From Candidatus Contendobacter sp. (lineage in GTDB: Bacteria; Pseudomonadota; Gammaproteobacteria; Competibacterales; Competibacteraceae): 64,000 nt of DNA. The stretch covers positions 1,364 through 65,363 of the forward strand of contig JARSSO010000038.1 of assembly GCA_029624765.1 (NCBI GenBank), given 5' to 3'. Below, piece by piece: positions 37,201 to 43,200 of this stretch. A program made the position numbers. Within the stretch, counting starts at the first letter, position 1, and each line of letters opens with the position of its first letter.

Positions 37201-40200
37201 GACTGCCGGCCCGCGCCCCGATCAGCCGGTTCGGATCCTCGCGGCAAATCACGCCGAGACTGTAGGCCCCGGTCAAGCGCGCCACGGCCTGTTGCACCGC
37301 CGCCAGCAAGTCGCCGGTGATCCGCAGCTTCTGGTCAATCAGGTGGGCGATCACCTCGGTATCGGTGTCGGACTCGAAGCGGTAGCCGGCGGCGATTAAC
37401 TCGGCCTTGAGTTCCTGGTAGTTTTCGATGATGCCGTTGTGCACCACCGCCACCGAGTCGCCGCTGATATGCGGATGGGCGTTGCGCTCGCAGGGTTCGC
37501 CGTGGGTGGCCCAGCGGGTGTGGGCGAGACCGAGCGGGCCACGCACCGGCTCCTGGCGCAAGCGCTCGGCCAGCGCCTGGACCTTGCCGACCGCGCGGAC
37601 CCGGTGCAGGCGTTCGTCGCGGCTGTCCAGCGTGACGATGCCGGCCGAGTCGTAGCCGCGGTATTCCAGCCGCCGCAGCCCTTCGAGCAGAATGGGAGTG
37701 ACGTTGCGTTCGGCGATGACGCCCACGATTCCACACATGACGATATCCAGAGGCAAGAAAATGGATTCAGGGTAGCGGCTTGTCCGCTGGCGGACAAGCT
37801 GTTCCCGTGGTCATCGTCGTCGTCGCATCCGCCGCCAGCCATTCCCGAAACAGCGCGTTCAACGATTCCAGGCCGGGTTTGGCCGTCGGGGCCAGGGCGG
37901 TGGGACCCTCGACCAGTCGCGCCAGTTCGGCCTTGATCCAGTCGCTCAGGATCGGAATACGCGGCCCCCAGGCCATTTCCTCGCCGCTCTGCTTGAGCCG
38001 GAGCAAGTGCTCGATGGCGTCGCGCAGCTCGCCGGACGGGATCAGGGTTTCCACCAGATCGCGGAACGGCATCGGTACCACTCCCCGCCCGCTTTCCAGC
38101 CAGCGCACCGCCAGCAGCGGGCGCAGCACGTAGAGGTATTTTTTCAGCCGCACCCGCTCGCCTTGCAGGTAGGCCCGGTCGTTACCCCGCGCCATGTGCA
38201 GATAGTGCCAGGCGCAACCCAGCGGGGAGTAACAGGTTGGCGTCAAGGCCAGCATCGCCTCGCGAAATCCCGGCTCCGCCTGGTAGACGATGGACGAGTG
38301 CAGCCACTCGAACAGCGGCGGGTTGGATTTGCGCATCAGTTGCAGGGACTTGCGCAGGTCCCAGCCGTTGATGTCCAACACATCTTCGATAGGCCGTTCG
38401 ATCACGTCGCGGCGATGCTCTAGGTCGATGCTCAGGTACCAGTCGCGCGGGCGGACGTAAATGAAGCGCACGTCGTAGTCGCTGTCGGGCGAGGCGAAGC
38501 CCCAGGCCCGGCTGCCGGATTCGCAGGCGTACAAGACGCGGACTGCTTCGGTTTGCTCGATGGCCACCAGCCGTTCCAGGATGGCGGTGGTCATGCCCAA
38601 TGGCGGGGTGGGGTCGATGGCGTTCATTCGGACTTCAGGACTATCCATTTTTACGCTGGCATAAGAAGAGGCGGGTGATCGTTAGCTTACCAAAAGGCGG
38701 CCTCCCAGTTCCCCATGGCCTGATCTGGATATCACCAGGGTTCTCGGCAAAGCCGTTATCATTTAATCGTATCACAACAAACTTGTTGCAATACAATTTT
38801 GTTGTGATACGATTAAGATTCGCAGCTTGTTGGGGAAAGTTTATGACCTGCTTTGGCCGAACCCAGGAAACCGCCGAACTTTGGCGCCTGTTCAACGAAG
38901 GACGCAATCTGCTGATGCTCGCGCCACGCCGGATCGGCAAGACGGTTCAAATCAATCACCTGCGCGACACGGCGGCGGAGCACGATTTTCGCGCCATCGT
39001 TTTGGAAGTGGCGGGCTTTCGAGAGGAAAAGGATTTCTTCCGCCAATGCTGCGCGACCATTCAGGAACAACTCTCGACCGGCGCCAAGGTCATGACCGCC
39101 TTCAGCGAGCGACTTTCGCGAGTGTGGCGCGGCCATGAAGGCGGCGGCGATTGGCGGCAAGCCCTGCTGCAAACCGACTGGCGGGAGTTCGCCAACCACC
39201 TGTTGGCTCATCTGGACGAGCATAAAAACGAGCCGCCCTGGCTGATTCTGGTAGACGAATTGCCCATCTTCGTTTTGGCTCTGCGCGAGCGCGGCGGGGT
39301 TCAGGCGGTCAGCGATTTCCTCTACTGGCTGCGCAACATGCGCCAGAAATACCGCCGGGTGCGCTGGCTTTATACCGGTTCCATCGGTCTGGACAGCGTT
39401 GCGCGCCGCGATAGCGTGGAAGGAGCCTTGAACGATCTGGACGTGTTCCCGTTCGCCCCTTTTGCCCCCGATACCGCCCGCGCCTTCCTGGCCGACATCG
39501 CCAAGCGGCGCGGCCGTACCTTGCACGAAGACGCCGCCGAGGTCATCCTTCACCGCCTGGGCTGGCTTTCGCCCTACTACCTGGAAAAAGTCGCCGAGGA
39601 CGCCTGCGCCTTGGCCGGGACTGGTGGCGTTCTGGACCTGTCGCGCGCCCAAGCCGCTCTGGACCGGATGCTCGACTTGGAGAAACGCACCTACTGGAGT
39701 ACATGGCGGGAACATCTGGACCGCAACTTCACCGATCCCGAACGCAGCCGCCTCTACGCCGTGCTGGAAACGGTTGCCAAGAGTGACGCGGGGGCGGGTT
39801 CCGACGCGCTGCTTCCCGTGCTGAACCGGGGCGGCGAGCCGGTGAGCGAAGCGGTTTTGCGTCACTTGCTCGATACCTTGCTGGTCGATGGCTATCTCGC
39901 TGTGGACAGCGAGCGCCGCTACCGTTTCCGCATGAACCTGTTGCGCGAGTGGTGGCTGCGCTACGTGGTGTTGTGAGTGGCCGCGATGGGCAAGCTCATC
40001 AATCTCGCCGTTTACAACCCGGCCATTCTCGACGACGCCGATTTTCTCGCCGGCTTTGTCGCCCGCCAGGACCTGGCCGCCTCGCTGCTGGCCCGGCTGG
40101 GCGAAATCACGCCGCGCGGTCAGGCCCGGCACCATCTCATTCTCGGTCAGCGGGGGATGGGCAAGACCAGCCTGTTGCGCCGCTTGGCCCTCGGCGTGCG

Positions 40201-43200
40201 CGAGGATGCCGCGCTGGCCGCCGTGCTGTTGCCGCTCACCTTCCGGGAAGAGCAATACAACGTCCACAACCTGCACACGTTTTGGCTCAACTGCCTGGAT
40301 GCTCTGGGCGATTATTTCGAGAAAACCGGCCAGGCCGACAAGGCCGACGAAATCGACCGCGACACCGCGACGCTGATGCGCGGCAACATAGACGTTGAAG
40401 GCGGCGCCGCGCTCGACGTTTTCAAGCGTTGGGCGAAGCGCGAAGGCCGCCGCCCCCTGTTGCTGCTGGACAATATCGATTTCATCCTTGATGGGCTGGA
40501 GGTCCAGCACTGGAGCCTGCGCCGGATCATGCAGGAAGCGGGCGGCATCGTGGTGGTCGGGGCATCCGCCGCCTATCTCGAAGCCACCGCCGACCCCAAG
40601 GGCGCTTTTTACGATTTCTTTCAGGTGACCGTGCTGGAAAAGCTCGGTCAAGACGAACTCATCGCCTGCCTGCGGCGACTCGCCCAGGAGCGCGGCGAGG
40701 AAGGGCGCAAGGTGCTGAACGTCCTGAACTGCGATCCAGGGCGCATCCGCGCTCTGCACGATCTCACCGGCGGCAATCCGCGCACCTTGATATTGCTGTA
40801 TCTCCTGCTCGAACTCGACGCCGAGGGCGATGTGTTCTCCGACCTCGAACGTCTGCTCGATCAAGTGACCGTGCTGTACAAGGCCCGAGTGGAAGACCTG
40901 GCGCCGCAAGCCCGCGTGGTGCTCGACACCGTGGCCTTGGCCTGGAATCCGATCACCGCCGCCGACATAGCCACCGCGACCGTGCTGGATACTTCGGCCG
41001 TCTCCGCGCAACTGGACCGCTTGCAGAAAAACGGCGTGGTCGAAAAGGTCAGCCTGTCTTCCACCACCCGCGCCGGCTTCCAACTGGGCGAGCGTTTCTT
41101 CAACATCTGGTATCTGATGCGCCACGGCCCGCGTCGCCAGAAAACCCGGTTGCGCTGGCTAACAAGCTTTCTGCGGGGTTTCTATTCCCCCAGTCAACTG
41201 ACCGAGCGGGCGCTCGAATTATTGAAAGGCAATAGCCGGAATGGCTTAGAGCGCGGCCACTATGCAATGGCTTTGGGTGAAGCTGTCGATGACAAGGGCT
41301 TGCGCCATCTACTCGCGCAAGAAGCTCGCACCGAGTTCGCGAGTTTCGCTGCCGCCAGTGGTAAGCGATTGGAAGATATAGTTGACTTGGAGGGTTTGCC
41401 CACACCAAGCACTGCACAGGAATGGTTCGGTATGGGATCGTGGTTACATGGACGGTTAGGTCGTTACAACGAAGCCGAGGCCGCCTACCGCCAAGCCATC
41501 GCGCTGGATCTCAAGTTCGCCTCACCTTGGAATGACTTAGGTAATCTGCTGCAAGAACATCTCTTCCGCTACGAGGAAGCCGAAGCTGCCTACCGCCAAG
41601 CGATTGCAATAGATTCCAAGTTCGCTTGGCCTTGGTACAACCTAGGTAATCTAATGCGTAAACTTGCAAATTACGGTGAAGCCGAAACCGCCTACCGCCA
41701 AGCCATCGCGCTGGATTCCCAGTTTGCCTCGCCCTGGAACAACTTAGGTAATCTGCTACAAGACTATCTAACCCGTTATAAAGAAGCTGAGACTTGTTAT
41801 CGCCAAGCAATCAAAATCGACTGGGGATATATTTTACCGTGGATTAATCTAGGTTGCTTGTTGCATGACCACCTTGCCCGTCATGAAGACGCCGAGAATG
41901 CTTACCTCCAAGCCATAAACCTGAATGCTTCAAACGATACGGCCAAAGCCTGTCTAGCCTTTTTCTACTACGCCCAACCAGACAAATACAGTGAAGCCGA
42001 GGCACTGTTCGAAACAGTGGAAGCTCGCCTGCCTTCATCCAAATCAGGGTTACTGCGCGCCTTTCGTGCCTTGGCAATGGACAATTTTGGCGAGGCCTGT
42101 TCGGTTCTGGAAGCACTTATCAAAGAAGACAAAGGAATAGAATTTAATCCCATCAATCGCGATTTATTACGACTGCTTCGCCTAGCCGCCGAACGCGGCT
42201 ACGGCGACAAGCTGATCGCTTGGTTGGATGAACAGGGTTATGCCGACCATTACTGGCCTCTGCGCGTGGCTTTCGACGCCTATCTGCACGGCGAGGCCAA
42301 GCTGATGGACGTGAATCCCGAAGTGCGCGGCGCGGCCAAACGAATTTACGACTGGCTGGACAGTGCCCGCCGCGCCCAAGCGGCTAAAACCGAGGAAAGC
42401 GGCAAGGCCCCACAGCCTAAACGCAAGAAGGTCACTCGAAAAACCGCTCCTCCGCCAGCAACGGCACCACCCGCTGGATGATCGGGTCGGCGGCGAACCG
42501 TTGCTGGATGACACCGTCGCGCAAATGATTGGCCAGCGCGATCAGGATCATGCTCTGATCCAGCGCCAGATAGTTGTAGGCCACCTGGCCAGTTTTCGGG
42601 TCCACTGCGTCGTAGAAGCCGAAGTCACCGTACAGCGGATAGCGTTCCGCCAGTTGGCGCAGATTGGCCGTGGCCGCCGCCGGCTCGGTCAGCAACGCCA
42701 GCGCCGCCGCGTGCGGCGTGACCGCGCCGGCGGGATAACCGCGCGCCCCGAGCACCCGCGCGCCGTATTCGCCATAGCCGTCGCCGCCCGGCGTCGAACT
42801 TGGCGACAACCCCCAGACCGGATAGCCCAGATGCTCCAGCGTGAACCGGCGGCTCAGTTCGGTATGCGCCAGGGCGTTTTGCCCCAGACTGGCCGGCGCG
42901 TACCGTAACTCGTCCAGCACCAGCAGCGGCATCAGCGCCTCAAACAGGCTGCCGCCCCAGGACGGCAGATATTTCAATCCTTTCCACGAATAGTAGCCGC
43001 CGGGGAACGTGACACCGTTGACGGTCTTGTCGGCGCGGCCCTTGGGCGATTGCGACTGCCAGTTGAAGCGGGCCGGGAAGGTGCGGGCCATGCGATACCA
43101 GTGTTCCACTGGCGCCTCGCCCTTGCCGATGGCGATCAGACTACCCAGCCGTGCCTCGCTGTACAGCAAGCCATAGCTGTATTCCGACCGATGCGGCAGG

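Follow-up and report, generated by a model that had tools for sequence, protein, structure and literature searches.

A two-gene cassette of paired STAND-like ATPases with a putative operator of its own in Candidatus Contendobacter

The antiviral nucleoside triphosphatases known as Avs or AVAST, which belong to the signal transduction ATPases that have numerous domains (STAND) and were reportedly described by Gao and colleagues in 2022, are among the closest described systems to the locus considered here, a pair of adjacent ATPase genes, A and B, at positions 38843-42481 of a 64,000-nt stretch of DNA (the window) from Candidatus Contendobacter sp. (assembly GCA_029624765.1, contig JARSSO010000038.1, positions 1,364 to 65,363 of the forward strand). 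With Avs and bNACHT proteins this cassette shares, in gene B, a module of nucleotide-binding domain (NBD), helical domain and winged-helix domain (WHD) followed by a diversifying sensor of tetratricopeptide repeat (TPR)-like repeats, and its family is likewise patchy and horizontally transferred. It differs from them in that it has no fused or adjacent effector, matches no Avs model in PADLOC and is not enriched in defence islands, and in that it possesses an obligatory paralogue consisting of a nucleotide-binding oligomerisation domain (NOD) only, a D-N Walker B motif in gene B and an operator of its own. In a survey of STAND proteins, clades were called defence-associated by their neighbourhood or effector content, and the main text of that survey does not mention pairs of this kind (Lee et al. 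2026, PMC13581612).

A second point of comparison is provided by PAB2304 (2qen) and SSO1545 (2fna), PF01637 'archaeal ATPases' that consist of an AAA+ domain with a lid and a C-terminal winged helix, ~350 aa in all and nothing else, and that are the best full-length structural matches to gene A. Their sequence identity to gene A is, however, 16-17%, neither has an assigned function, and their PDB entry titles, the sole part of the entries compared, name no partner or operator. The paired or sensor-helper nucleotide-binding leucine-rich repeat receptors (NLRs) of plants (NRC helpers; 8xuo and 8bv0 are among the fold matches) also set two related NODs side by side, one with recognition repeats and one minimal, but A and B carry no coiled-coil (CC), TIR or other executioner domain, the homology is limited to the NOD fold and any functional likeness is speculative. 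In the MalT/LAL, AfsR/SARP and GutR regulators an ATP-switch NOD is joined to a repeat sensor and to DNA binding, as is predicted for the cassette, and these proteins oligomerise on repeated boxes upon ligand binding. They have a separate LuxR- or OmpR-type domain and adjacent catabolic or biosynthetic targets, whereas the helix-turn-helix of the cassette is the winged helix of the NOD itself and its sole clustered target is its own promoter. Finally, ORC-Cdc6 and the Rep proteins of iteron plasmids resemble the pair as heteromeric assemblies of AAA+ and WHD type in which catalytic ATP sites occur alongside non-catalytic ones, with AT-rich inverted and direct repeats adjoining the gene, but the cassette gives no sign of replication (its depth equals that of its flanks), lies in a housekeeping chromosomal context and bears a TPR sensor on B.

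The two genes were first noticed in a sequence-only reading as an abutting pair, and both open reading frames (ORFs) are present as proposed. Gene A (38843-39976, + strand) encodes a 377-aa NOD-only AAA+ ATPase comprising NBD, lid and C-terminal winged helix, and gene B (39986-42481, + strand) encodes an 831-aa sensor ATPase (834 aa if counted from a GTG at 39977). Gene A always precedes gene B, and the stop codon of the one either overlaps the start of the other or lies 9 nt from it. Across 61 Competibacteraceae genomes B lies directly after A in 28 of 29 gene A matches, the lone exception being at a contig end, and a scan of one genome per species produced 79 loci in which B follows A in essentially every case with enough downstream DNA. 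All-against-all clustering of the flanking ORFs yielded no conserved third gene beyond A and B. The description of the locus as a STAND-like module of two P-loop ATPases, the second of NOD, winged helix-turn-helix (wHTH) and TPR layout, therefore holds, and the module is kept as a unit across genomes. The same reading had recognised no named system, and PADLOC v2 gave little to set against this: gene A had marginal matches to mad8 (19.2 bits, E 1.7e-4) and PDC-S27 (E 1.3e-3), and for gene B there was nothing relevant, the matches being to the CARF/Csa3 wHTH and the PtuA P-loop at E 5e-4 or weaker. The mad8 match is insignificant, and the flanking genes (RlaP, GlmS and glycoamylase) are not other mad genes, which distinguishes the locus from MADS. 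The two-gene cassette is real and conserved, and it matches no named system. One Candidatus Competibacter metagenome-assembled genome (L002:9841-16770) carries the operator and gene A block in tandem, with gene A at 10001 and 13237 and a truncated gene B after the first of the two copies; either the block is genuinely duplicated or the arrangement arose in assembly.

The start of gene A was placed at the ATG at 38843, rather than at an upstream ATG at 38600 in a longer ORF, because its homologues are all of 372-394 aa and have the N-terminus MxCFxR. Its Walker A motif is APRRIGKT, in which G32, K33 and T34 are invariant across homologues, its Walker B motif is LILVDELP, in which D138 and E139 are invariant, and R188/R189 are candidate arginine fingers. 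An AlphaFold2 (AF2) model (predicted local distance difference test, pLDDT, 88.7) combines an AAA+ core with a lid and, at the C-terminus, a winged helix, so that gene A as well as gene B ends its NOD in a winged helix, which for gene A the sequence-only reading had not noted. Pfam returned sub-threshold P-loop matches only (AAA_22, AAA_35 and nSTAND6) and no match of gene A to PF01637 (ATPase_2) at E <= 0.1; some homologues do carry precomputed PF01637 matches. The best Foldseek matches were 2qen (TMq 0.64, E 4e-11) and 2fna (TMq 0.59, E 5e-10), with ORC/Cdc6, RuvB, RFC and plant NLR NODs next in rank. In a profile search of 1.84 billion representatives, 981 clusters were recovered when the limit was set at E <= 1e-30, and 2,276 with a limit of E <= 1e-10. 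About 130 of the 150 best listed clusters are 360-420 aa long and the remainder are shorter, and there is therefore no domain fusion among these 150.

For gene B the frame is open from the GTG at 39977, but the likely start is the ATG at 39986 (MGKL...), 9 nt past the TGA of gene A, since an identical database protein has 831 aa and homologues start MGxL. Its Walker A motif is GQRGMGKTS and its Walker B motif LLLLDNID, with D165 and D168 invariant throughout the homologue alignment and N166 kept in at least 90% of its sequences; a GGNPR motif (GxP/sensor-2-like) is conserved alongside it. Intact Walker A and B motifs had been claimed for both proteins. This is correct for both motifs of gene A and for Walker A of gene B, but only half right for Walker B of gene B, because the Mg-binding Asp is present and the position of the catalytic Glu is occupied by Asn. 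In the light of general knowledge of AAA+ proteins, the near-invariant D-N suggests that gene B probably has an ATP-binding but poorly hydrolysing site.

The domain order of gene B, in the 834-aa frame, runs from an NBD (~50-220) through a helical domain (225-306) and a MarR-like winged helix (310-370) to an invariant motif, ERFFNIWYLMRHGPRRQ, at 372-388, an arm extending to ~470, the TPR array (480-716) and a conserved C-terminal helical domain (728-809), after which there is a disordered basic and proline-rich tail (AF2 model: pLDDT 89.0, predicted template modelling score, pTM, 0.70). The wHTH and TPR array noted at the outset are both supported, the former by sub-threshold Pfam matches of MarR type (MarR_2, MarR and HTH_5, ~310-370) and by marginal matches to PefI, MarR and ArsR (E ~0.01), the only kind that a profile of the gene B NOD gave among PDB sequences, and the latter by strong matches to TPR_11, TPR_8, TPR_2 and TPR_1 (E 1e-17 to 1e-26, ~480-716). 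The conserved domain after the TPRs was an addition to that picture: P761, A768, L776, P781, E782 and A787 are invariant in it, and the C-terminal 143 aa have no Pfam match. P-loop matches in Pfam are all sub-threshold (AAA_16, ATPase_2, nSTAND5, NACHT and ORC-CDC6-like); gene B scores 19.3 bits against PF01637 (cut-off 33.2) and 18.0 bits against NACHT PF05729 (cut-off 26.7). A Moraxella plasmid homologue reaches 30.2 bits against the latter and passes the cut-off that gene B of the window fails, so that the family sits at the edge of NACHT. Full-length gene B retrieved TPR proteins only in Foldseek, and an NCBIfam scan of both genes added nothing to Pfam.

A profile-profile alignment of A (20-357) with B (50-360) in hhalign has a probability of 94% (E 1e-7), from which it follows that the two are distant paralogues. 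They are asymmetric in Walker B, with an invariant DE in A and a near-invariant D-N in B.

The region immediately upstream of gene A contains a putative three-box operator (38769-38810, + strand) that overlaps the cassette's own predicted promoter. The boxes, TTGTTGYRATAC, are of 12 nt each and lie at 38769-38780 (inverted), 38783-38794 (direct) and 38799-38810 (direct), within an inverted repeat with 24-nt arms (38763-38786 / 38793-38816). The array is unique in the 4.29-Mb genome, in which two isolated exact boxes occur elsewhere against ~0.4 that chance alone would give on our own estimate. The inverted-direct-direct layout recurs 20-40 nt upstream of gene A in Gamma- and Betaproteobacteria, Acidobacteriota (with CACAACAGATTTGTTGTGCTACAGTATTGTTGTACAAC, as one example), Verrucomicrobiota, Lentisphaerota and Myxococcota. 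The core pentamer has a median of 3 occurrences per 100 nt upstream of gene A, where the background would give 0.1-0.3, and for 13 of the 20 diverse loci compared not one background window attained the observed count of the core motif. Other clades of the family bear other boxes (TGTATAAATAC, GAATAAAT or TTTACAAC), and homology of distant cassettes begins at the operator (73% identical from 38770 in L012). Deep conservation of the operator is the reason for which DNA binding and self-repression have been made part of the mechanism proposed below, and sequence-specific self-regulation is, on this comparative evidence, a predicted built-in property of the cassette. A putative sigma-70-like promoter (38787-38814, + strand) overlaps boxes 2 and 3. 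It was read by eye as TTGCAA-16 nt-TACGAT, with 8 of 12 consensus positions, and orthologues have TACAAT at the equivalent position; a consensus promoter scan returned nothing at 9/12 or above. Two further possibilities were considered and rejected. The first was a regulon under the same boxes, for which a whole-genome box search found no second array, and the second was mimicry of phage DNA by the operator, for which the two-box pattern in IMG/VR matched only coding repeats of Cys codons.

The source genome contains three diverged A-B pairs, located on C38, C7 and C35. The C7 (12666-16966, - strand) and C35 (17338-20332, - strand) cassettes are paralogous to that of the window, with gene A 27-33% identical depending on the search. 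The former has its own AT-rich palindromes, TGCGCAAA/TTTGCGCA, plus TTTGCAC..GTGCAAA, and the latter its own TTGYYTTGCAA repeats, both arrays differing from the operator of the window.

The sensor is the part of the cassette that changes most between orthologues. Where NODs are 92-95% identical in amino acid sequence the TPR segment is just 58-63% identical, and gene B ranges from 557 to 870 aa with between 0 and 5 EAExxYxxA[IL] motifs. Inside the TPR-coding DNA is a tandem repeat with a 102-nt unit (41471-41754, + strand; 2.7 copies, 75% matches), which is a candidate substrate for changes in repeat number. The ratio of non-synonymous to synonymous substitution rates (dN/dS) goes from 0.07-0.11 for the NOD to 0.16-0.25 for the TPR region, and dS itself rises from ~0.3 to 1.2-2.0. 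It is because dS rises whilst dN/dS stays below 0.25 that the 3' half of gene B is regarded as mosaic or recombinant rather than simply positively selected; positive selection on the TPRs was rejected on the same figures. Two loci, L010 (7705-9378) and G044 (C10:12528-13859), have a gene B of 557-560 aa that has lost the entire TPR array in frame (window 41218-42018) and retains the NOD and the C-terminal domain.

The distribution of the cassette is wide and discontinuous. Members of the family occur in 21 of the 61 Competibacteraceae genomes, and a close orthologue (at least 89% identity) in six of them, belonging to three genera, with two genomes of the same genus lacking it. The 79 loci span Gamma-, Beta- and Alphaproteobacteria, Desulfobacterota, Acidobacteriota, Verrucomicrobiota, Lentisphaerota and Myxococcota, and the family is represented in at least eight phyla. 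Moraxella osloensis, Clostridium tagluense and Segatella copri harbour distant pairs (21-27% identity) on plasmids, and carriers among culturable bacteria include Thiococcus pfennigii, Azospirillum halopraeferens DSM 3675 and Paracoccus sediminilitoris as well as the Moraxella osloensis plasmids. Judged from such sequence comparisons, the cassette is a horizontally mobile and accessory element.

The DNA common to orthologous cassettes elsewhere in the Competibacteraceae (38668-42597, + strand) was delimited by blastn of loci L001-L012 against the window. Its left edge falls at 38668-38683 or at 38768-38776 and its right edge at ~42390-42450; where a 116-nt piece of the glycoamylase gene comes along, the right edge is instead at 42597. 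The cassette adjoins the glycoamylase gene in the window, in L006 (= G052) and in L007, and lies elsewhere in G056 and G060, where the glycoamylase gene is on another contig. In these two genomes the relocated cassette is followed by the last 116 nt of the glycoamylase gene, at G056:C5:12412-12527 and at G060:C66:22218-22333 (window 42482-42597), and the hitch-hiking fragment implies transfer by imprecise recombination and not by a site-specific element.

In a further genome, G047, the glycoamylase site retains an operator 89% identical to 38769-38815 but has no A-B genes. The cassette is replaced there (C284, locus L090, ~2972-3933, equivalent to window 38668-42428) by a gene pair whose products are a TumE toxin (PF20126, E 4.6e-14) and, as its wHTH partner, an HVO_A0114 (TumA-like) protein (E 2.9e-31), with a possible leftover of the first codons of gene A behind the retained operator. 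In one bioreactor metagenome run (X28; window 38125-42174) the flanks are covered ~100x and the cassette only 0-4x at >= 95% identity, and a co-occurring strain therefore either has no cassette here or has a strongly diverged one. An extrachromosomal or amplified form was looked for and rejected: depth over the cassette on metagenome contigs equals that of the flanks, and no circular or back-joints were found, which argues against a replicating element. Nor does the cassette appear to be phage-borne, as gene A has no match in INPHARED, PHROGs has none for A and only generic TPR and wHTH matches for B, and among the 2.9 million contigs of IMG/VR just two matched, weakly and in part. Both genes are represented in pieces, and at low depth, among sludge metatranscriptome contigs of 92-99% identity, which is weak evidence that related alleles are expressed.

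The reading preferred here is of an autonomous, horizontally mobile, predicted self-repressed sensor cassette built from two paralogous ORC/Cdc6-STAND-type switches, whose ligand is likely to be foreign; with its mechanism included, it is given a probability of about 0.45. In the mechanism proposed, A and B would form a hetero-oligomer seated on the operator via one or both winged helices, and would in this way keep the operon nearly silent. Gene B would be the ATP-binding, poorly hydrolysing sensor, in which binding of a ligand by the TPR array would open the NOD and reposition the winged helix. The opened NOD would then release repression, or drive ATP-dependent co-assembly with hydrolysis-competent A, or both, and the output would be directed at DNA or ATP and not pass through a classical enzyme effector. 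The ligand would most likely be a foreign protein, of a phage or another mobile element, which is the least certain step; were it so, the cassette would be an effector-less conflict module resembling paired NLRs.

In its more specific form, that of an unnamed class of immune or conflict sensor with no enzymatic effector, the proposal is a doubtful though possible one. The cassette would then be a DNA-anchored switch of paired-NLR type, in which a TPR-bearing, hydrolysis-impaired NOD and a minimal catalytic NOD would repress their own promoter via a co-evolving three-box operator. An invader protein on the TPRs would cause the pair to leave or remodel the operator, and an ATP-driven complex would form; what defends the cell would be the binding or consumption of DNA or ATP by this complex. 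A role in defence is suggested by the NLR-like layout together with a sensor that is mosaic, by patchiness combined with horizontal transfer, by several insulated paralogues in one genome, by the exchange with a toxin-antitoxin pair and by the neighbours of plasmid copies (QatD, a kinase and a methylase beside the Moraxella copy; a WYL regulator ahead of the Segatella copy, with DUF262 close by). Conflict or immunity is the leading hypothesis, and an immune role is plausible though unproven, since the cassette has no recognisable killing enzyme and lies outside defence islands.

A number of observations weigh against the preferred reading. There is no PADLOC system match for the cassette, and neither an effector domain nor a third gene conserved alongside the pair emerged from Pfam, NCBIfam, PADLOC or ORF clustering. 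The sequence-only reading had already seen no nuclease, TIR, SIR2 or membrane effector, and Pfam, NCBIfam and PADLOC indeed contain no nuclease, TIR or SIR2 match for the pair, no dedicated membrane-segment predictor having been applied. Of ten ORFs abutting cassettes, those that can be assigned are CobT, DctP and a sub-threshold zinc ribbon, and there is no hidden effector among the ten. The sequence-only reading had also proposed the pair as a defence candidate whose homologues should be enriched in defence islands, a proposal with which the surroundings do not agree. The ~200 neighbours (94 + 106 ORFs from ~55 loci) are overwhelmingly housekeeping, with no defence-island enrichment in family tallies made without a matched random-gene control. 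For 31 of the loci, with 94 neighbours, histidine kinases, response regulators, RuBisCO and nitrogenase are the commonest families, and among the 106 neighbours from other clades they are ABC transport, cobalamin synthesis and methylmalonyl-CoA mutase. In PADLOC no family had more than two members in the batch of 94 (E <= 1e-5), and there were at most three matches in the batch of 106 (E <= 1e-10). A type I restriction-modification system lies near one of the 31 loci. On average, purifying selection acts on the TPR region (dN/dS 0.16-0.25), and mis-registered repeats may inflate part of its divergence in both dN/dS and dS. The metatranscriptome contigs were assembled from mixed strains and DNA carry-over is possible. 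The recognition helices of A and B both vary with the operator class, and co-variation does not settle which winged helix reads the operator. Finally, there are non-immune STAND regulators with TPR sensors, namely MalT, AfsR and GutR.

The last point leads to the main rival, which we consider possible but rather improbable: that B is a STAND transcription factor like these, sensing an endogenous protein or metabolite by means of its TPRs, with A as a co-regulator or chaperone-like partner and with unlinked targets in addition to its own promoter. A layout of NOD, wHTH and TPR is what such a regulator would have, autoregulation, to which the conserved operator layout points, is typical of regulators, and purifying selection throughout and housekeeping neighbourhoods with no defence enrichment fit it well. 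Unlinked targets are, however, difficult to reconcile with a three-box array that occurs solely at the cassette's own promoter and with isolated boxes at about chance level. No neighbouring gene is conserved, Pfam found no LuxR/GerE, OmpR or BTAD output domain in genes A and B, and ORF clustering found no linked target operon. The family is moreover patchy and crosses phyla together with its operator, and three mutually insulated paralogous cassettes in a genome, combined with a mosaic sensor, fit a fixed physiological ligand poorly.

It is unlikely that the cassette is a selfish addiction or stability module, one with no dedicated sensing role in which loss or an imbalance of A and B is harmful in the manner of toxin-antitoxin systems, although it is compact, mobile and predicted to be self-repressed, occupies the same slot as the TumE/TumA pair of the sister genome G047 and lacks both an effector and an island association. 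Two large ATPases and a variable TPR array of 250 aa are far more elaborate than known addiction modules, and the TPR-less orthologue of L010 and G044 (557-560 aa) is exceptional. Least probable is the reading in which the cassette serves the DNA transactions of a cryptic mobile element, with a pair of ORC/Cdc6-like initiators or loaders acting on iteron-like repeats beside their own gene, at an origin, partition or transposition site, in the manner of archaeal cdc6-oriC or plasmid Rep-iteron units. In its favour, the fold is nearest to AAA+ and WHD proteins of ORC/Cdc6 type, inverted and direct repeats form an AT-rich array immediately upstream, and some copies are plasmid-borne. Against it, the source metagenomes show flank-level depth over the cassette and no circular joints, no integrase, transposase or other element gene is conserved nearby, the family is essentially absent from phages and a TPR sensor would be unexpected in an initiator.

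The surroundings of the cassette in the window are ordinary. GC content is ~0.59-0.61 across the cassette region (38-42 kb) against ~0.65 in the flanks of the window-wide profile. Upstream lie genes for NYN, Prc, DUF815, UPF0114, Dtd and GlmS and then a divergent RlaP nucleotidyltransferase, and downstream are glycoamylase, DnaK and GrpE. The RlaP-family gene (37767-38648, - strand; PF10127, E 1.5e-91) was ruled out as part of the module, as cassette homology ends at 38668-38776 and RlaP is located elsewhere in sister genomes. A 739-aa ORF (45640-47859, + strand) runs antisense to dnaK (45754-47694, - strand) and matches Pfam NAD-GH PF10712 (E 1e-218), a family known to be an artefact of dnaK antisense, so that the ORF is not a gene.

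Should the cassette serve as a sensor in immunity or conflict, bacterial surveillance of the NLR-like kind would be divisible into sensor and partner NODs, signalling could proceed with no fused nuclease, NADase or pore, and a winged helix could act as a transcriptional brake. Searches based on effectors and islands would miss a layout of this kind. Should it instead be a regulator, it would represent a widespread family (~1,000-2,300 clusters at 50% identity). The conserved operator, the DE/DN asymmetry of the Walker B motifs and the existence of culturable carriers make the cassette directly testable.

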